Part shown: positions 4,606-15,847 of the stretch, piece after piece
Numbering within the stretch: position 1 is the first letter of the stretch
Layout: every line of letters starts with the position of its first letter
NCBI GenBank assembly: GCA_965223545.1
Contig: OZ245006.1
Location: 3,520,001-3,584,000, forward strand
Length of the DNA stretch: 64,000 bases
Direction: 5' to 3'
Origin: Planctomycetota bacterium
GTDB taxonomy: Bacteria; Planctomycetota; UBA1135; UBA2386
Program-made: the position numbers and the translations under genes
The notes under the pieces: model-generated
The model's database searches: none
The model's input: only the letters and a program-made list of their open reading frames with translations
Told to the model about the DNA's origin: nothing

Positions 4606-6784
4606 TCGCTCCGAGGAACGACTCGACCAACACCGGCAGCAGCCAGAGGTCCGCGATCAGCGCGGTGAGGACCACGGCCGTGAGCAGGACGCCCACATCT
4701 TGGGTCGACCGCAGGTCCGTCGGCAGGTAGCTCAGCGCGCCGGCCGCCATGATCACCGAAGTGACCAGCAGGGCCCGGCCGGTGCACCGCAGCGTGCGCA
4801 GCAAGACCGTGCGAACCGGAGCGCCGGGATCGGCGCGCTGCTCCTGGCGAAACCGCGTCAAGACGTGAATGCTGTCATCGACGGCGAGGCCGAGCCCGAG
4901 GCAGTAGATCATCACGATGCCGACGCGCACCGGAATATCGAGCCAACCCGTGAGCCCGAGGGCGACGGTGATCGGCAGGACGTTGGGGAGCATCGATACC
5001 AGCCCGAGACGCCACGAGCGGTAGATCACGCTGACGAAGACGGTGATCGCCAGCAATGACACCGCGAAGCTCTGCAGCAGCGTGACGATGATCAGCCGCG
5101 AGCTCTGGTGGGCCATGAGGGTGTAGCTCACCGCCTCGGCACGGATCACGGCCGCGTGTGGCCGAGCCGCTTCGGTGACGCGCTGCTCGAGCTCGAGGAA
5201 CCGCTGGGTGCCGAGATCGCCGGTGCGAAACGTCAGACGCCCGTTGCGCATGTCACGGTCCACCAAGTGACCGGGGAACTCATCGCCGAGAGCGCGGAGG
5301 ATGCGCACCGCCGCGGTGACCGAGTCCGCATCCAGCGACCGTTCCGGGCCCGCGATCTCGCGCAGCCAATCGACATAGCTGTGGGCGGTCGTTACCCCCG
5401 GCTCCTCGATCAGGGCGGCGCGCAGCGCGTCGACCGCGGCGACGGCTTCGGCGGAGGCGAGATCGCCCTCCAGCTGCACCGTGAAGTGGAGCGGCCCGGT
5501 GAAGTGCTCGCCAAACCAGTGCACCGCGGCGACAGCGGGATCGTCGGCCGGCAGCTCCTCCAGCCAACGCGACTCGACCCGGATCCGCGACGCGCCCCAG
5601 ACCGATGCCGCCACTACCACGACCGCAACCAGCAGGGTGAGCCGCCGCCGCCCGTAGCTGACGCGGTCGAACACGTTCTCCAGCACCGGCGCGGCGGCGC
5701 GGCGCACCGGCCACCATGCCAACCCCAGCGGCATCAGCAGCATCACGGTCAGCCAGGTGACGCCGACCGCCATGCTAGCTTTGAGGGCGAACTCCCGCAC
5801 CGACTCGTGGCGGGCGACCAAGAGCGACAAGAAGCCGAGCGCGGTGGTGAACGAGGTGTGGAAACAAGCCACCCCGACATGGCGGAGCATGTCGACGATC
5901 GCGGCGCTGCGGTCGCGGTAGGCGCGCATTCCGACTTCGAAGCGGTGCAACATGTGCACGGCATCGCACAGGCCGAGAATCGTGATCAGGCCGGGGATCG
6001 CCACGTCGAGGACGGTGATCGACAAGCCCAGCGCGGCCATCAGGCCGAGATCCAGGGTGATCGCCACCAACACGACCAGCAGCGGAAGCAGCACACCGCG
6101 CACCGAGCGGAACAGCAGGGGCGCCAACAGGGCGAACAACAGCAGCTCGAGCAAGGCGCTGTCTCGCATCGAGCTCAACATCAGATCGCCGAGAGTGCGC
6201 TCCACGGGTGCCGAGCCCAGCATCCGCACGGTGGCCTCGTCGCCGATCACGCGTGCCAACAGCGTCTCGACGTCGTGCAGCAGCTCGGCCTCGCGGACCG
6301 CCGGTTGGGCTTTGATCAACACCACCGTCGAGCGGCCGTCCACCGACAGCAATGTGCGATGCAGGATCGGGTGCCGCGCCACGACATCGGCTACCGTGCC
6401 ATCGCCGATCAAGCTGGCGACCGTGGTGGGGATCGGCACGCCGAGCACACGCTCCAAGACGCGCACCGATGCCAGCGACTCGACCGCGCCGACGCTGCGC
6501 AGACCGAGCAGATCCTGCTCGACCTCGGCGAGGCGCGAGAGCTCGGCGACGCGCAGGGGGCTTGGCCACGTCAGCGAGACGATCAGGTCGACCCCTGGCG
6601 GCGGCAGCCGCTCGTGGAACGACGCGACGCGCTGGCGCTGGTCGGCATCACCTTCGATCAAGGGCTCGATCGAGAAGTCCAGCCGGGAGTGCGGCAGCCA
6701 CGCGACGGCCACGACGACGACTGCCACCGCGAGCGCCGTCAACGGGGCGCGTAGGGCCAGGACCAGCTCGGCGAACCTCTGCAC
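4538..6784 (-). CDS. MMPL/RND-family transporter
   Basis: Two repeats of TM plus periplasmic loop plus 5 TM. Motifs GLCDAVHMLHRF, TSFTTALGFLSL, GLAVDDSIH. Confidence 0.88.
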   Translation of the reverse strand: MQRFAELVLALRAPLTALAVAVVVVAVAWLPHSRLDFSIEPLIEGDADQRQRVASFHERLPPPGVDLIVSLTWPSPLRVAELSRLAEVEQDLLGLRSVGAVESLASVRVLERVLGVPIPTTVASLIGDGTVADVVARHPILHRTLLSVDGRSTVVLIKAQPAVREAELLHDVETLLARVIGDEATVRMLGSAPVERTLGDLMLSSMRDSALLELLLFALLAPLLFRSVRGVLLPLLVVLVAITLDLGLMAALGLSITVLDVAIPGLITILGLCDAVHMLHRFEVGMRAYRDRSAAIVDMLRHVGVACFHTSFTTALGFLSLLVARHESVREFALKASMAVGVTWLTVMLLMPLGLAWWPVRRAAAPVLENVFDRVSYGRRRLTLLVAVVVVAASVWGASRIRVESRWLEELPADDPAVAAVHWFGEHFTGPLHFTVQLEGDLASAEAVAAVDALRAALIEEPGVTTAHSYVDWLREIAGPERSLDADSVTAAVRILRALGDEFPGHLVDRDMRNGRLTFRTGDLGTQRFLELEQRVTEAARPHAAVIRAEAVSYTLMAHQSSRLIIVTLLQSFAVSLLAITVFVSVIYRSWRLGLVSMLPNVLPITVALGLTGWLDIPVRVGIVMIYCLGLGLAVDDSIHVLTRFRQEQRADPGAPVRTVLLRTLRCTGRALLVTSVIMAAGALSYLPTDLRSTQDVGVLLTAVVLTALIADLWLLPVLVESFLGATTPGPRVSPRTPAPPRAATDRG

Positions 6785-6966
6785 GCGTTCCGTCTCTAGC
6801 AGGCCGCGCTCCGTTTCTCATCTGCGTTCTGGGGTCGCGGTTCCCGTGTTCGGCAGAACCCATCGCATGGCGCCGCCGTCGATTCGCTCAACAGACGGCG
6901 CGCCGATGCCCGAAGGTTGGTCGAACGAAGCGCCGCGGTGCCGTGGAAACCCACAGGGAGAACGTC

Positions 6967-7941
6967 TTGTCGAAACTGGCCACAGTCCTGGCGGCCGGTG
7001 CGATTCTGATCGCAGCCTGCCGGGATCCCGGCCCGCCCCCGCCCGGGGTGCGCATCGACGAGGCGCACCGCGACCCCGAGCCGGTGCCGTTGCTGGCGGC
7101 GACGGGGGAGCAGCCAGCGGCGGAGCTCGACCCGCGCGCGGGCCACCCGGGCGGCCTCGCCGCCGCGCCGCCAGGTGGTGCCGGTCGGCAGACCACCGCC
7201 GAGGCGCTCCCGCGCCAGTCGTTGCCCGTGCGCATCGGCCCGCTGTGCCAGGCGTTGATCGGCGACCTGTTGGAGCGGGCGTTCGAAGCGCACGACCAGC
7301 GCTGGGATCTGGTCTGGCTCAAGAGCACCGATCGCGGTGCGCTCGACGAGGTCGGTGCCGATCGCTGCCCCGCGGCGGTCGTCGCTCTGCCGCTGGCGCC
7401 CGTCGATCACGCGCGCGGCCTCACCGCGCACCTGCTCGGCGCGCAAGTCGCCGTGGTCGCGGTGACCGACGAGAGCGGTCTCAACGGCCTCACCGAGCCG
7501 CAGCTGCGGCTGGCCTGCACCGGCCGCGCGCGGGAGTGGAACGAGATCGCCTATCAACGCGGCGAGATCCAGCTGTGCAGCGGCCCGGTCGACGTCGAGT
7601 ACAACGCCCTCACAGGCCTCCTTCTCCCCGGAGCAACGATCTTCAGCGGCACCCGGCGGGCGCGCAGCACGCACGCGCTGCTCGAACGCGTCAAGGGCGA
7701 CCCGCTGGCGCTCGCCATCACCTCGCTGGCGGCGGTGCGGTCCACCGCGGGCGTCCGCGCGGTTGCCGTGCAAGGCATCGACGCCGCGCCACGGCATGTC
7801 GCCGCTGGCCGCTACCCGTTCGTGCGCCGGCTGTCGTTCGCGCACGCCGCGCGGCCGCTGCCGGGCGTGCGGGCATTGCTCGAGTACGCGACGTCGGAGA
7901 CCGGCCGTGCGGTTCTGAGCGCGCGGGTGACCACCCCCTGA
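6967..7941 (+). CDS. Lipoprotein with periplasmic-binding-protein (PstS/PBP2-like) domain
   Basis: GGGAG RBS before TTG at 6967, lipobox IAAC, GRAREWNE and C-terminal GRYPFVRRL resembling PstS-family proteins. Confidence 0.6.
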   Translation: MSKLATVLAAGAILIAACRDPGPPPPGVRIDEAHRDPEPVPLLAATGEQPAAELDPRAGHPGGLAAAPPGGAGRQTTAEALPRQSLPVRIGPLCQALIGDLLERAFEAHDQRWDLVWLKSTDRGALDEVGADRCPAAVVALPLAPVDHARGLTAHLLGAQVAVVAVTDESGLNGLTEPQLRLACTGRAREWNEIAYQRGEIQLCSGPVDVEYNALTGLLLPGATIFSGTRRARSTHALLERVKGDPLALAITSLAAVRSTAGVRAVAVQGIDAAPRHVAAGRYPFVRRLSFAHAARPLPGVRALLEYATSETGRAVLSARVTTP

Positions 7942-8009
7942 GCAGCGCGCGAACCCTCGCGCGTCACTCTTGCGCCGACTCGGTGGCGGCCCTTGCATGG
8001 ACCCCCGCC

Positions 8010-9689
8010 ATGCGCATTCGTCGCCTCACCGCGCACCTGTTGCTCTCGAGCACCGCGCTGCTCGCCTCCTCGTTCCTCGCGATCGCCCCGGCTCAGGCCT
8101 CGCCCGACACACCGGCGACCCCGACCACCGCCCAGCAAGAACCGCTGCTCGACGTGCTCGCCGCGCTCCAACGCCGCCGCGATGAGCTGGCCGCTGCCGA
8201 GCAGGAGCGATCGACGATCACCGATGAGGAGCGCCGGGCGGCCGCGAATGCCAAGGTGACGGAGCTCGAGAGCCAAGTCCTCGAACTCGAACGGCGCTTC
8301 GATGCGCTCGCCTCGGGCGTCGATGGCAGCGCGTTCGTCAAGACCACGCCGGATGACACGACTCTTGCGCAGGAGCTCGAGACGGTGCTGTTGCCACTCG
8401 TGCAGAAGCTCAAGGCGGCCACGAAAGAGCCACGCGAGATCGAGCATCTCAAACAAGAGGAGACTCGCGCCATCGAGAACCGGGACCTCGCCAAGCTAGC
8501 CATGGACCGGTTGGCGCAGCGCATGCGCGAAACGCGCAGCGAGCCGCTGCAGGCCGAGCTGCGCAGTCGGATCGAGACCTGGCGATCGCGCTACCAGGAA
8601 AACGACCAAACCGCGCGCGTGGCCCGGCTGGAGTACGATCGCCGCCTGGAGAACCAACGGCCGTTCCTCGAAGTTGCGGGCGAAGCCGCCGACGACTTCT
8701 TCCAAACGCGAGGACTCAACTTGCTGTTGGCGGCCGGCGCCTTCGTCGCTGCGCTGATCAGTCTACGGATGGTCGGGCGCGCGCTGCGGCGCGTCACTCG
8801 GCGAAAACGACAATCGGTGTACCGCCGCGCACTGGAGGTGCTGTGGAACACGATCACGGTCCTGGCCGCCTTCTTGGCGATGATGGCCGTCCTCTACTTC
8901 GCCAACGACTGGTTGGTCTTGCTGCTGGTGCTGATCTTCTTGGGCGGCCTCGGCTGGGCCAGCATCCAGCTCCTGCCCAAGATGTTCGAACAGGTGCGCG
9001 TGCTGCTCAACCTGGGTGGCATCCGCGAAGGCGAGCGCATGCTGTGGGAGGGTGTCCCTTATCAGATTGCTCATCTCGGAATGTACACCCAGCTGGAGAA
9101 CCCGGATCTCAGCAGCGGCGTGCTGCGCATTCCGATCCGCGACTTGATCGACAAGCACTCGCGGCCAATCGCGGCCGGCGAGCGCTGGTTTCCCTGCCGC
9201 GCGGGAGATTGGGTCTTGCTGGCCGACGACACGCGTGCGCGAGTCGAGATCCAGACCCCCGAGTTCATCCAGCTGCGGTTGCCCGGCGGGGGACCGAAGA
9301 CCTACGCGACCCCCGACTTCCTGGCCTTGGCGCCCAAGAACCTGTCCGGGGGGTTTCGCATCGAGCTGGTGTTCGGCGTCGACTACTCCCACCAGGCGAT
9401 CTGCACGACGGAGATCCCCAAGGCGATGCTGGCGCGCCTGCGGCGCGACTTGCCCGGCGTCGTGCCGGAGTCGGCCACCAAGAGCCTCACCGTCGAATTC
9501 ATGGCAGCCGCCGCATCGTCCCTGGATTACGAGATCCAGGCCGATTTCGACGGCTCGGTGGCCGAGCTGTACGAGCGCATCCAGTTCTCCTTGTCGCGCA
9601 TCTTGGTCGACGCCTGCAACGAGCACGGCTGGGTGATCCCCTTCCAGCAGTTGACCGTGCACCGAGCGATCACCGCGGCGGCCGAGTGA
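8010..9689 (+). CDS. Mechanosensitive channel (MscS-like) protein with N-terminal coiled coil
   Basis: Signal peptide, coiled-coil region, 3 TM helices, LNLGGIREGER, FGVDYSHQ and C-terminal IPFQQLTVH. Confidence 0.7.
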   Translation: MRIRRLTAHLLLSSTALLASSFLAIAPAQASPDTPATPTTAQQEPLLDVLAALQRRRDELAAAEQERSTITDEERRAAANAKVTELESQVLELERRFDALASGVDGSAFVKTTPDDTTLAQELETVLLPLVQKLKAATKEPREIEHLKQEETRAIENRDLAKLAMDRLAQRMRETRSEPLQAELRSRIETWRSRYQENDQTARVARLEYDRRLENQRPFLEVAGEAADDFFQTRGLNLLLAAGAFVAALISLRMVGRALRRVTRRKRQSVYRRALEVLWNTITVLAAFLAMMAVLYFANDWLVLLLVLIFLGGLGWASIQLLPKMFEQVRVLLNLGGIREGERMLWEGVPYQIAHLGMYTQLENPDLSSGVLRIPIRDLIDKHSRPIAAGERWFPCRAGDWVLLADDTRARVEIQTPEFIQLRLPGGGPKTYATPDFLALAPKNLSGGFRIELVFGVDYSHQAICTTEIPKAMLARLRRDLPGVVPESATKSLTVEFMAAAASSLDYEIQADFDGSVAELYERIQFSLSRILVDACNEHGWVIPFQQLTVHRAITAAAE

Positions 9690-9791
9690 CCCGCCGGCGC
9701 GACCTCCAAAGTCGGGCCGCAGGCGTTATTGTTAGTGGTGTCTGCAGTCCCACGTCTGCCCGCGTCCTCGAAACTCCTCAAGGGTCGTTGC

Positions 9792-10784
9792 ATGTTCGTC
9801 CGCTCTCTGATCCCGGCGCTGACTCTGCTCGCGACGGCGGCCCCCGGCACCGCACAGCGCGGTGACCCGCTGCCGCAGGTCGAGCTCGAAGGTTTCAGCC
9901 AGACGCCCGCCACGTCGCTCGATGACTATCGCGGACGGCTGCTGTTGCTCGAGTACTTCGCCTATTGGTGACGCCCGTGCGCCGCCTCGGTGCCGCACCT
10001 CAACGAACTCGAAGCCGAGTTCGGGAGCCGCGGGCTGAGCGTCGTCGGCGTGACCGGCGAGACCAAAGAAAAGACCGAGCCGTGGATCGAGAAGCACAAG
10101 GTGGGCTTCGCCTATGCGTACGACCCGGACAAGGCCCTGTTTCGCGGCCTCCGGCTGCGCGCCTATCCGAGCGCCGTGCTCGTCAGCCCGCGGGGCGAAG
10201 TGGTGTGGAAGGGCCACCCGATGGCGCTGACCAACAGCGAGATCGATCAACACCTGCGTTTCGCCTCGCGCATTCCCGTCGAGACCCGCGCCAAGATGCG
10301 CAGCTGGCCGGCGGCGGCGGCGAGCGTCGTCAAGCTGGTCGACAAGAACAAGCTCGCCAAGGCCCTCGACGAGGCCGAGGAGCTGGCGGCGGCGGACCCG
10401 GCGACGCCGGGAGTCGTCGACGACCTCACCGCGTACGTCGATGGCGTGCTCGGCGACTGCCGGGGCGCGCGAGACGCCGGCGATTTCTTGACTGCCTTGG
10501 AGACCGCGGAGGACTTCGACAAGGCTCTATCGGGGCATGCGCGCGGCGTCGCGTTCCAGGAGATCGTCAAGGAGATCCGCGGCGACAAGACCGCCGGTGC
10601 CGCGATCAAGACGCAGAAGAAGCTGCTCAAGCTCGGCGCCCTCATCGAGCAGACCTCCGCGAGCAAGCTGCCCGGACTGATCAAGACCCTCGACAAGATC
10701 GAAGGCGAGTACCGCGGCACCTTTGTCGGCAAACAGGCGCGCGCGCTGCTGACCCGAGCCAACCGCAAGCTGGTCCGCGGGTAG
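9792..10784 (+). CDS. Exported TlpA/thioredoxin-like redoxin, probable selenoprotein (Sec at TGA 9969-9971, UxxC)
   Basis: The two ORFs 9792-9971 and 9990-10784 are in the same frame. Read-through gives SLDDYRGRLLLLEYFAYW-U-RPCAASVPHLNEL...VVGV...AYPSAVLVSPRGEVVWKGHP, with TGA exactly at the first Cys of WCxxC. Confidence 0.85.
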
Positions 10785-10791
10785 CGGCCGG

Positions 10792-11673
10792 ATGGCGGCC
10801 GCCCTCGCCCTGCTCGCCGCCTACGCCACCCTGCACGGTGGCGCCGTGCTCTACACGTGGCGGCGCTGCGCGCAACGCGAGCCGTTCTGGCGCCACGCGC
10901 GCCGGCGGTCCGCCGTCTTGGCGCCGCTCAACGCCCTGATCTACGCGTGCTCCGCGCTGCCCGACCGCAGCGTCCACGCCGCCGCGTCAGTCCCCGGCGT
11001 GCGGGGACTGCGCGCTGGTTGGCGCATCGCGAAAGAAGAGGGCACCGCCCTCCTCGAGCGCGACGCGATCCGCCCGCCGGCCTGGACCAACGACGCCAAG
11101 ATCGCGGCCTTCCACGAGCGCGGTTGGCACCCGTACTACTTGCTCTGGCACGGGGACGTCCTGCCATCCGCGCAAGCGACCTGCCCGCGCACGGTGGAGC
11201 TACTGAGCGGCCTACCGCAGGTGCGCGGCGCGATGTTCGCAGTGCTGCGCCCCGGCGCCAGGCTCGAGCCGCACACCGATCCGTTCGCCGGCACCCTCCG
11301 CTGCCACGTCGGCCTGGGCATCCCGGCCGGAGCGGCCTGCTGGCTCGAGGTCGACGGCCAACGCCACACGTGGACCGAAGGCGAAGCGCTCGTCTTCGAC
11401 GAGACCTATCTGCACAGCGCCGCCAACCACACCAGCGATGCGCGGCTGGTGCTGCTGTGCGACGTGGAGCGACCGCTGCGCTACCGCTGGGCCACGGCCC
11501 TTCAGCGCGCGGCCCGCGCGCTGCTGATGAGCGTGGTCGCGGTGCAGAACGAGCCCGGCGACCCGGTGGGTTGGCCGGCGCGATTGGCGGGTCTGCTCGC
11601 CGGACCGCGCCGCGCAGGCGACCCGCGCCGTCAGCCCGCGCCCGCCTCCAACACCAAGTCCCGCGCGTCGTAG
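10792..11673 (+). CDS. Aspartyl/asparaginyl beta-hydroxylase family Fe(II)/2OG dioxygenase (LpxO-like)
   Basis: CPRTVELL, AMFAVLRPGARLEPHTDPFAGTLRCHVGL, FDETYLHSAAN, CDVERP. Confidence 0.82.
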   Translation: MAAALALLAAYATLHGGAVLYTWRRCAQREPFWRHARRRSAVLAPLNALIYACSALPDRSVHAAASVPGVRGLRAGWRIAKEEGTALLERDAIRPPAWTNDAKIAAFHERGWHPYYLLWHGDVLPSAQATCPRTVELLSGLPQVRGAMFAVLRPGARLEPHTDPFAGTLRCHVGLGIPAGAACWLEVDGQRHTWTEGEALVFDETYLHSAANHTSDARLVLLCDVERPLRYRWATALQRAARALLMSVVAVQNEPGDPVGWPARLAGLLAGPRRAGDPRRQPAPASNTKSRAS

Positions 11674-14455: not shown

Positions 14456-15847
14456 TCAGGAACCAATCACGGCCGCAACCGCGTCGGATATGACGACACC
14501 CAACACGGGCCTCTGCGGATCGGGAACGACCGCCTGTTGGAAGAAGTGCGCGCCGATCAAAGACTGCGCCACTGGGACTTGAAGCTGGAGCGTCGCGGAC
14601 GCGCCGACACCTGTCACCGGTACGGCCCCATCCATGCTGACCCTGAGCCAGCAACCAGACAGGCCGAGGACACCCAAATCAAACGGTAGCGGCCCAAGAG
14701 AGCTGACGGTGTTGCTGGTACCGAACAGCAGCACCGCTTGGCTCAAGGGCAACCGCTGCATCTGCAGACTCACCGACAGCCCCAAGCGCGGCGGGCGATC
14801 GGCACTCAGAGTCGGCACCCCCAAGCTACCCGCACATCCGCGGCCGAAGGTGAGGAACGAGCCCGACTGCGCCAGCGCTACCGTGTGGTCGCGGCCGGCG
14901 GCGATTGCCGCGTAGGTCAAGCCGGGCGACAGCCCGGTCACGCTCAGCTGGCGGAGCCCGTTCTCGCCCCAAGCGACCACCGATCCATCGCTCCGGCGCG
15001 CAAGCGAATGATCGTCCGAGGCAGCCACTTCGACGTAGACCAGTCCGGGCGGCAGGGCAGGCACGTTGATTTGGCCGAACGAGTTGTCGCCCCAGCCGAC
15101 CACCGCGCCGTCGCTGCGCAGCGCTACCGAGTGGTCCCGGCCCGCGGCGACGTCGGCGTAGCTGACACCGGGCGGCAGCGACGGCACGACCGGGATCCTC
15201 GTCGGACTACCCCACTCGACCACCGATCCATCGCTCCGGCACGCAACAGTGTGATTCGCACCGGCAGCGACTCCGACGTACCTGTGTCCCCGCGGCAACA
15301 ATGGCACCAACGCCTGTGAGGCACGACCCCATACGATCACCGAGCCGTCGCTGCGCAGCGCGACGCTGTGCCGCTGGCCAGCACCGACGTCGGTGTAGGT
15401 GAGTCCGGGCGGCAGGGCCGGCACGTTGGTCTCGCCGTTCCAATTGGCGCCCCACGCAACCACGACACCATCGCTGCGCAGCGCTACGGCGTGGGATTCG
15501 TAGGCGGCCACCTTGACGTGAGGGGCCCCGGGCGGAGCCGGGGGCACGTCGGTCTCGCCGTTCCAATTCGACCCCCACGCGACCAACACACCGTCGCTCT
15601 GCAGCGCCACGGTGAAATCTCGGCCCGCCGCGACATCGACGTAGCCGCCCCCGGCCGGCAGCGGCGGCACGTTGGTCTGACCGGACCAATTGCTACCCCA
15701 GCCAACAACCGAGCCATCGCTCCGCAGCGCGATTGTGTGGTACTCACCGGCGGCGAGCTCCGCGTACGCAAGGCCGAGCGGCGCCGGCGGCACGGCGATC
15801 TGGCCCAGAGAGTGTGCCCCCCTTCCACCGGCTGCCGATCCCGGCAT
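14456..15847 (-). CDS. RCC1-repeat beta-propeller protein with C-terminal beta domain; N-terminus apparently truncated
   Basis: About eight 40-aa repeats of AAGxxHSVALRSDGxVVxWGxNxxGQ/E. The ORF begins mid-repeat and has no signal peptide. Confidence 0.8.
   Translation of the reverse strand: MPGSAAGGRGAHSLGQIAVPPAPLGLAYAELAAGEYHTIALRSDGSVVGWGSNWSGQTNVPPLPAGGGYVDVAAGRDFTVALQSDGVLVAWGSNWNGETDVPPAPPGAPHVKVAAYESHAVALRSDGVVVAWGANWNGETNVPALPPGLTYTDVGAGQRHSVALRSDGSVIVWGRASQALVPLLPRGHRYVGVAAGANHTVACRSDGSVVEWGSPTRIPVVPSLPPGVSYADVAAGRDHSVALRSDGAVVGWGDNSFGQINVPALPPGLVYVEVAASDDHSLARRSDGSVVAWGENGLRQLSVTGLSPGLTYAAIAAGRDHTVALAQSGSFLTFGRGCAGSLGVPTLSADRPPRLGLSVSLQMQRLPLSQAVLLFGTSNTVSSLGPLPFDLGVLGLSGCWLRVSMDGAVPVTGVGASATLQLQVPVAQSLIGAHFFQQAVVPDPQRPVLGVVISDAVAAVIGS
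14875..15810 (-). repeat. Tandem ~120-bp coding repeats (RCC1)
   Basis: Recurring GTCGCTGCGCAGCGC / ATCGCTCCG motifs on the + strand at roughly 120-bp spacing. Confidence 0.75.

Follow-up and report, generated by a model that had tools for sequence, protein, structure and literature searches.

A distal SECIS-like hairpin behind a spacer stem-loop suggests a second layout of selenocysteine recoding in Planctomycetota

We analysed a 64,000-nucleotide stretch of a planctomycete genome (hereafter the window) and describe in it a gene whose structure suggests that Planctomycetota possess a second layout of selenocysteine (Sec) recoding, in which a SelB-binding hairpin at 77 nt from the UGA codon would be delivered by a 59-nt stem looping out the coding sequence in between. 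We put the probability of this reading at roughly three in four. What is shown directly is the reading frame and its TGA, the Sec machinery of the genome, the conservation of the TGA, the conserved complementarity of both stems and the near exclusion of distal and proximal elements.

The gene occupies positions 9792-10784 on the forward strand as a single frame of 330 codons from ATG to a TAG stop, with one UGA read through, and full-length homologues align with it. Its sole in-frame TGA, at 9969-9971 (forward strand), is codon 60, in the context Y-W-*-R-P-C. The preliminary description of this DNA had joined two open reading frame halves sharing one frame into a gene with TGA at the first cysteine of a WCxxC motif and a 330-aa read-through product, and in these points it proved correct: the peptides it quoted are present, and 330 codons plus TAG are counted. 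Its expectation that pipelines would fragment the gene was likewise borne out, the public protein collection having the gene only as a 264-aa piece that starts past the UGA, from a GTG at 9990-9992 (forward strand) falsely chosen as the start by gene callers. Six of the eight matches to the gene in that collection are similar fragments of 249-264 aa; P0003 and P0006 are full-length WCGPC homologues among public proteins. The TGA is not an assembly error. As judged from assembled contigs, not raw reads, one assembled from a different sample of the same study is identical over 9700-10822 (0 differences), and another, of 151 bases and from a separate study, spans 9845-9995, likewise with 0 differences.

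The element on which our reading turns is a SECIS-like hairpin of 7 bp at 10042-10060 (forward strand; +71..+89 past the UGA), with the loop CGUGA at 10049-10053, 77 nt from the UGA. Its predicted energy is -9.4 kcal/mol, or -10.2 kcal/mol when it is folded alone. In the bSECIS model (Zhang and Gladyshev 2005, as rendered in the accessible text of PMC13188914), which some genes fail, an upper stem of 4-16 bp carries a loop of 3-9 nt, with an MFE of at most -7.5 and the loop 16-37 nt from the UGA. The hairpin shares with this model a location 3' of the UGA within coding sequence, a 7-bp stem and a 5-nt loop with G at position 2 followed by U, and its stem length, loop length, G within the first two loop places and MFE all fall within the model's limits. 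It departs from the model in spacing, the apical loop lying at 77 nt rather than within 16-37 nt of the UGA, and in being preceded by a conserved 59-nt stem-loop.

Proximal elements were recognized by a rule of our own, distinct from bSECISearch, that requires a loop of the form N?G[GU], at least five perfect pairs and at most -4.5 kcal/mol, 16-37 nt past the UGA. By this rule the window gene has no proximal SECIS hairpin 16-37 nt past its UGA, and the same range contains no hairpin with at least four perfect pairs and a G in the first two loop places. Applied to the 27 other homology-supported Sec sites of the genome, the rule finds a proximal SECIS-type hairpin in 25, a share that leans high because selection was partly by eye and drew a few sites from a SECIS-filtered list. 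These sites were chosen by coding signal on both sides of a TGA and then by a Pfam or NCBIfam match spanning it; four further ones (C1 2117366, 5646290, 7187630 and 6226605) were left uncounted because no family match spans the TGA.

Homologues were assembled in two sets. The first holds 85 distinct genes, with column 60 being TGA in 72, TGC in 11 and TGT in two; 13 hits without the motif pattern were dropped from it, and L022, L049, L087, L088, L094 and L107 re-entered in the second set, from which three hits without CxxC were dropped. Among 126 Sec homologues, 58 carry only the distal element, 51 only a proximal one, four both and 13 neither, and the distal hairpin occurs in nine of 109 Cys homologues. 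In the 72 Sec genes of the first set, a wide distal window gives 40 distal, 27 proximal, two both and three neither (with two of 13 Cys genes distal-positive, both from one genome), and a strict window gives 39, 28, one and four, respectively. The distal window was picked after this first set; the second set, made up of new loci, was scored by rules fixed beforehand, and its 54 Sec genes comprise 19 distal, 23 proximal, three with both and nine with neither (Fisher 2.7e-5). Its distal-positive Cys controls number one of 13 from the phylum and six of 83 metagenome Cys TlpA genes, the latter serving as controls because W-C was forced in the pattern of the metagenome scan, which therefore gave Cys forms only. 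Two of the three second-set genes with both elements have a different loop, UGGAAAG at +79, and the 13 genes with neither include several near-threshold proximal hairpins and two genes in which CGUGA forms the loop at +39. Of the 58 distal genes, 50 have the loop CGUGA or CGUGU; loops of proximal SECIS elements in the window's own genome include CGUGC and CGUGAC.

Some individual members of the family deserve mention. L077 (G137:C5) and L071 (G137:C41) are Cys (TGC) members from one genome, both distal-positive; L077 retains the 7-bp CGUGA hairpin unchanged, clusters with a distal Sec gene and is likely a Sec-to-Cys reversion with a relic SECIS. L100 (G184:C180:22100-24700) consists of two tandem Sec paralogues whose inner hairpin bears the CGUGA loop at +39, a third SECIS position just over the 37-nt limit.

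The complementarity of the distal stem is conserved. In the 72 Sec rows, unselected for the element, C-G/U-A swaps stand at 32/19 and G-C/A-U/C-G swaps at 28/13/5, exceeding all 500 shuffles (which ignore kinship) and all slid registers, and in the 58 distal genes all nine codon pairs found across the stem are complementary. The swaps couple a synonymous with a non-synonymous position, as in ATC-GAT (17), GTT-AAC (12) and GTC-GAC (10), encoding Ile-Asp, Val-Asn and Val-Asp. GTT is used in 16 of 16 cases in which Val faces an A-starting codon, as against 8% of Val codons elsewhere in these genes, and GAT makes up 25% of Asp codons elsewhere in distal genes. Measured against synonymous shuffles in a sliding window, excess structure lies at +10..+42 in 28 other candidate Sec sites of the genome and at +28..+54 (t -9.1) and +64..+96 (t -8.3, -7.8) in the 72 Sec genes of the family; the 13 Cys genes of the family have no such excess by the same measure. 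We consider it very likely that the distal hairpin is the SECIS.

The stretch between the UGA and this hairpin is predicted to form a long irregular stem-loop at 9983-10041 (forward strand; +12..+70), its base joining +12 to +70, and capped by an inner 8-bp hairpin at 10004-10023 (forward strand; +33..+52) with the loop AAGC. The fold of 9983-10063 has an energy of -42.7 kcal/mol (z -2.6), and averaged pair probabilities bring out the 7-bp stem of +71..+77 with +83..+89 together with a second stem at +33..+52. We had considered the inner hairpin itself as a slightly displaced SECIS and rejected it, its loop not being conserved and a better hairpin existing at +71..+89.

In distal genes generally, the intervening stretch folds into a single long, irregular hairpin that borders directly on the SECIS stem at its 3' end. 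When +1..+70 is folded alone and pairs between +10..+25 and +56..+70 are counted, at least six basal pairs form in 51 of 58 distal and two of 51 proximal genes, in two of the four with both elements, one of the 13 with neither and 11 of 109 Cys genes; the basal stem played no role in sorting the genes, and shuffled distal genes reach this mark in 27% of cases. The stability excess over +7..+69 is -9.6 and -9.4 kcal/mol for distal genes of the two sets, compared with -2.7 and -2.6 for proximal genes and -0.5, -1.9 and +0.1 for Cys groups. With no 5' cut imposed, the stem base falls at +12..+15 in 36 of 58 distal genes, and the 3' end at +68..+71 in most of them. Two-sided changes are seen at 10 of 15 outer pairs; since lineages differ by one position in register, the consensus register has 70% of its cells paired. 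RNAalifold at default settings found no consensus over +1..+75 (the first 78 columns) of 30 mixed genes, a range that stopped inside the distal stem and a sample that pooled distal with proximal genes.

Sixteen further loci were chosen by covariance model, and 14 of them are distal and none proximal, with at least six basal pairs in eight of the 14. At E <= 1e-5 the model, R1, has matches in 102 of 141 genomes from the class; this is not a count of distal elements because R1 scores sequence as well and also hits proximal genes (G040, G058). Searched with R1, the window's own genome yielded no second distal element (next best E 0.2), and viral contigs scanned for a UGA plus distal hairpin gave 0 matches.

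A ribosome with a UGA in its A site covers some 11-12 downstream bases, and the minimal SECIS of E. coli starts 11 nt after the UGA. The spacer stem would begin where the mRNA leaves the ribosome, and as +12 pairs with +70, the SECIS stem (+71..+89) would begin beside the mRNA entry, like a normal SECIS stem. SelB carrying GTP and Sec-tRNA would decode the UGA once bound to the N-G-U loop, after which the ribosome would unwind both stems, themselves coding sequence. In the naked mRNA of the window gene another fold is predicted and the SECIS pair probability is near 0; with the first 9-15 bases masked it rises to 0.53-0.92; in the family the element forms with or without masking (medians 0.96 and 0.99). 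It seems probable that the gene, read with Sec, uses a distal SECIS with its loop at 77 nt, looped to the ribosome by the spacer stem. The SECIS is likely placed where the protein allows, because the active-site helix (V-P-H-L-N-E-L) constrains the codons after U-x-x-C; lineages of the family would then have it at +17-21, +30-34 or +39, or at +77 in V-G-V-[TS]-x-E together with a spacer stem.

The distribution of the two states over the family speaks to how often they have been exchanged. On trees built without the trait columns and without short rows (84 of 85 rows, then 123 of 126), distal and proximal states change nine times in the smaller and ten times in the larger tree. On one quick tree of 244 branches, on which this count rests, the distal state changes 11 times, in seven cases on the same branch as a change of the proximal state. 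In a strict test, with changes on starred branches only, three and then five independent pairs are available and none runs in the wrong direction; the sign test is not significant, and it cannot reach significance because the independent pairs are too few.

It might be that the distal hairpin is the SECIS and the spacer stem pauses the ribosome at the UGA or protects the mRNA, SelB reaching the loop unaided. Read-through can indeed be favoured by a strong hairpin immediately 3' of a stop codon, and the basal register varies, with fewer than six basal pairs in seven of the 58 and six of the 14 additional distal genes. We nevertheless regard this as unlikely, since the stem is tied to the distal SECIS (51 of 58 versus 2 of 51) and not to Sec genes generally, since its base at +12..+15 and its 3' end at +68..+71 keep it abutting the SECIS stem in most genes, and since the same SelB, of ordinary length (match over 1-578 of 581), serves 25 proximal sites.

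Decidedly unlikely, too, is the possibility that the gene relies on a weak nearby element or on no SECIS at all, the hairpin at +77 being a by-product of the V-G-V-T-x-E strand. Two nearby hairpins are predicted in the window gene, one at +6..+27 (loop CUCG) and the inner hairpin (loop GAAGCC at +39), and in the two Sec genes of L100 the loop of the inner hairpin, at +39, is indeed CGUGA. By chance or as a relic, the distal hairpin can also arise from the V-G-V-[TS]-x-E motif, as the nine positive genes among 109 Cys homologues attest, and all seven pairs occur in three of 13 Cys genes with G-V-[TS] at this place. Against this, nine proximal-SECIS genes with the same G-V-[TS] show only 2-6 of the seven pairs, synonymous shuffles of distal genes yield the hairpin in only 13% of cases, and rare codons are chosen that keep the pairs. 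The hairpin at +6..+27, moreover, is not conserved and has no G in the first two places of its loop, and the loop sequence of the inner hairpin is not conserved either.

The codon that the distal element would serve is very likely read as Sec. The preliminary description had proposed a Sec-containing redoxin and suggested a search for the Sec machinery and for alternation with Cys; none of the three findings that it named as refuting was obtained. The genome (8.1 Mb, ~70% GC) possesses selA, selB, selD and the tRNA-Sec gene selC with its UCA anticodon, and selD has an in-frame TGA of its own (G-G-U-A-A-K). TGA does alternate with TGC and TGT at column 60: in 33 loci, the window's own gene among them, the codon is TGA in 30, TGC in two and TGT in one (34 loci had been given, L044 being dropped for want of an aligned column). 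Of 61 genomes from the family and order, 42 have a homologue at E <= 1e-15, and the family alignment is matched at E <= 1e-30 in 157 of 251 genomes of the phylum, domain-only matches included; the homologous loci that bear names belong to Planctomycetota and Lentisphaerota. Among the relatives, selA is present in 60 and tRNA-Sec in 56 of the 61 genomes, and selA in 186 of the 251 genomes of the phylum. In three genomes that bear the TGA and gave no selA match, selB and tRNA-Sec are present, and two genomes lacking all three genes have TGC at the codon-60 site. The machinery, the TGA/Cys alternation and the independent contigs thus support a Sec-containing redoxin; the insertion of Sec at residue 60 itself we infer.

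That the gene encodes a real selenoprotein, with UGA specifying Sec, is close to certain. A true stop, in a pseudogene, through a sequencing error or between two translationally coupled genes, would fit the 264-aa downstream frame that gene callers start at GTG 9990, and is very improbable given that TGA is kept at column 60 in 126 homologues across the phylum, many only 25-41% identical to the protein, that C63 beyond it is invariant in the family alignment, that independent contigs agree and that the GTG-started fragment has neither of the active-site residues nor the signal peptide. A genome-wide reading of UGA as Trp, Gly or Cys, which has nothing beyond the open frame in its favour, is extremely improbable, as TGA is the commonest stop past coding-like frames (2555 versus 1238 TAG and 152 TAA at score 0.5), the sole UCA-anticodon tRNA found in the genome is the tRNA-Sec, and read-through codons face Cys in paralogues in 15 of 53 cases for TGA, 3 of 63 for TAG and 0 of 4 for TAA.

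The predicted protein begins with a likely signal peptide (residues 1-21; 9792-9854, forward strand), judged by eye from a basic N-end, a hydrophobic stretch and G-T-A|Q, with residues 1-20 of low pLDDT and similar N-ends in homologues. It is followed by a TlpA/ResA-like thioredoxin-fold domain (residues 24-144; 9861-10223, forward strand), in which W59-U60-x-x-C63, E90 and P126, likely the cis-Pro, are invariant in the family alignment. Pfam matches run across the TGA, AhpC-TSA over residues 24-139 (E 1e-18; 67.7 bits against a cut-off of 26) and Redoxin over residues 23-144 (46.8 bits against 26.6). The predicted structure is confident (pLDDT 93), with a thioredoxin fold and then about 170 helical residues, and the best PDB fold matches of the first domain are ResA and DsbE (TM ~0.8 over the target). 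The ~200-aa helical tail of the preliminary description is helical as claimed and shorter, the model giving an all-helical C-terminal domain of ~170 aa (residues ~160-330; 10260-10781, forward strand). This domain has no Pfam match, and a fold search returned only generic three-helix bundles, the best at VIA-align Z 10.1 over 66 residues; the matches, which bear on a possible TPR or BAG-like domain, cover only residues 109-174 of the piece at Z <= 10.1.

Scores of the more specific profiles remain far below their cut-offs, namely 58.2 against 170 for ResA (NF002854), 50.2 against 230 for TlpA (NF047696), 24 against 123 for DsbE/CcmG (TIGR00385) and 40.4 against 300, over residues 19-168, for the ResA-like WAxxUGC selenoprotein (NF041054), whose motif differs from the W-U-x-x-C of the present protein. 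With ResA, TlpA and DsbE-CcmG (PDB 1SU9, 3GL3) it shares the fold, the W-x-x-x-C site and the downstream Pro; unlike them it has Sec for Cys and an extra helical domain, and cytochrome c maturation genes were not seen adjoining the gene. With UxxC TlpA-like selenoproteins it shares the thioredoxin fold, AhpC-TSA and Redoxin matches over cut-off and Sec as the first Cys of CxxC, and it adds the 170-aa helical C-terminal domain without a family match. UxxC selenoproteins of cd02966, PF08534 and PF00578 are already catalogued (in the available portion of PMC13188914), and the protein by itself is a new member of the catalogued UxxC cd02966/Redoxin group. It is likely an exported TlpA/ResA-like thiol-disulfide oxidoreductase, which would reduce or isomerise disulfides outside the cytoplasm via a selenolate (U60 with C63), the helical domain being a likely partner-binding part. 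Elsewhere in the family, L023, L026, L029 and L039 end in an additional C-x-x-C-x(6-7)-C-x-x-H tail that may bind metal. In the full-length homologues L076, L080, L082, L084, L086, L089 and L092, either the first active-site Cys/Sec residue or both are missing (as in G-D-Q-Q-C and W-S-D-K-C), and these may be non-catalytic paralogues.

The surroundings of the gene give no hint of a substrate: clustering of 1.5-3 kb flanks at 54 loci produced no trustworthy conserved neighbouring gene, one large cluster looking like off-frame sequence, and a search for sigma-70 promoters had no match. Among the sequencing runs listed, none carrying the sequence was of RNA, which has no bearing on expression. 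In the window, an Asp/Asn beta-hydroxylase (LpxO-like, below cut-off) at 10792-11673 on the forward strand starts seven bases past the stop and may share a transcript with the gene; it was not seen as a conserved neighbour. Upstream, at 5952-9689 on the forward strand, lies a 1245-aa open reading frame without a Pfam or NCBIfam match at E 0.01, its I-P-F-Q-Q end resembling the tails of mechanosensitive channels (MscS), and an RCC1-like repeat protein (PF25390, over cut-off) is encoded at 14456-15847 on the reverse strand.

Across the genome as a whole, homology supports at least 28 Sec codons, spread over 27 genes (loci L255-L286), a number below the cited record of 63. These genes include members of the Prx, TlpA, Trx, deiodinase-like, MsrA, AhpD, SelW, Grx, HMA, DUF3179, FdhA and SelD families, and L262 (C1:4587782-4588675, reverse strand) is a two-Sec VPGUxxT thioredoxin-MsrA protein over the NF041383 cut-off. 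Four heme-copper oxidase family matches occur alongside them; aerobes are said to rarely keep selenoproteins (accessible text of PMC13188914). Seven loci of the genome (L264, L265, L279, L269, L255, L276 and L289) hold candidate Sec sites that belong to no named selenoprotein family; a proximal SECIS-like hairpin accompanies most of them. These sites lie at C1 6247186(-), 2993927(+), 6151628(+), 3622532(-), 492917(+), 1762082(-) with 1761854(-), and 3793782(-). They comprise two paralogues with U-S-A-[GA]-Q-S-L-R, a C-T-U-N-N-G protein, a W-L-U-M-C-L protein, an FG-GAP repeat protein with W-U-C, a two-UGA protein and a Y-U-P-S-C carboxypeptidase-regulatory-like protein. A repeated element with at least 13 copies (e.g. 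at C1 6351730(+), 7213076(+) and 1356820(+)) carries one shared in-frame TGA, which separates a frame of 160 codons from one of 107, and is probably an insertion sequence.

The putative distal SECIS with its loop-out stem would extend the known forms of Sec recoding in bacteria. Reportedly, a NAR paper of 2005 dealt with a SECIS in the 3'-UTR in E. coli. Reviews of 2023 and 2026, in their accessible parts, keep the 16-37 nt rule and leave its exceptions unexplained (PMC10778597, PMC13188914, PMC12013277), and the available text of PMC13188914 neither describes a distal hairpin behind a spacer stem nor contains 'Planctomyc'. Atypical SECIS elements are noted to be overlooked (PMC12013277, in part), and divergent ones are reported from Photobacterium (PMC1242214, in part). 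Archaeal SECIS elements lie 70-1,500 nt from the codon (excerpt of PMC9499178); archaeal and eukaryotic elements share with the present one a signal far from the codon, but they sit in untranslated regions and have other motifs, whereas the distal element is of bacterial type, in frame and associated with a fixed spacer stem. Excerpts of related work (PMC9312934, PMC1088965, PMC1976440, 10.1101/2022.07.06.499078, 10.64898/2026.03.03.709296) form further background. In the accessible literature we found no distal bacterial SECIS behind a spacer stem, and the term 'distal SECIS' came up for mammals only in the texts as available; subscription papers lay mostly outside the search, and a prior mention is possible.

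The family offers a defined exception with a natural control, its close homologues being proximal or distal and almost never both, and because they use either element, the geometry of SelB delivery is testable with few mutations. Work on recombinant selenoproteins mutates the residues right after Sec to build a SECIS (PMC10778597, in part); if our reading is true, an engineered SECIS could sit about 25 codons away, off the active site. SECIS-based gene finders would miss such genes by design, and the layout may explain part of the genes with 'atypical SECIS'. For Planctomycetota, it would mean that a phylum-wide family of 330-aa selenoproteins, split in public annotation, has swapped between distal and proximal elements some ten times, so that the 16-37 nt rule would be spatial rather than linear.
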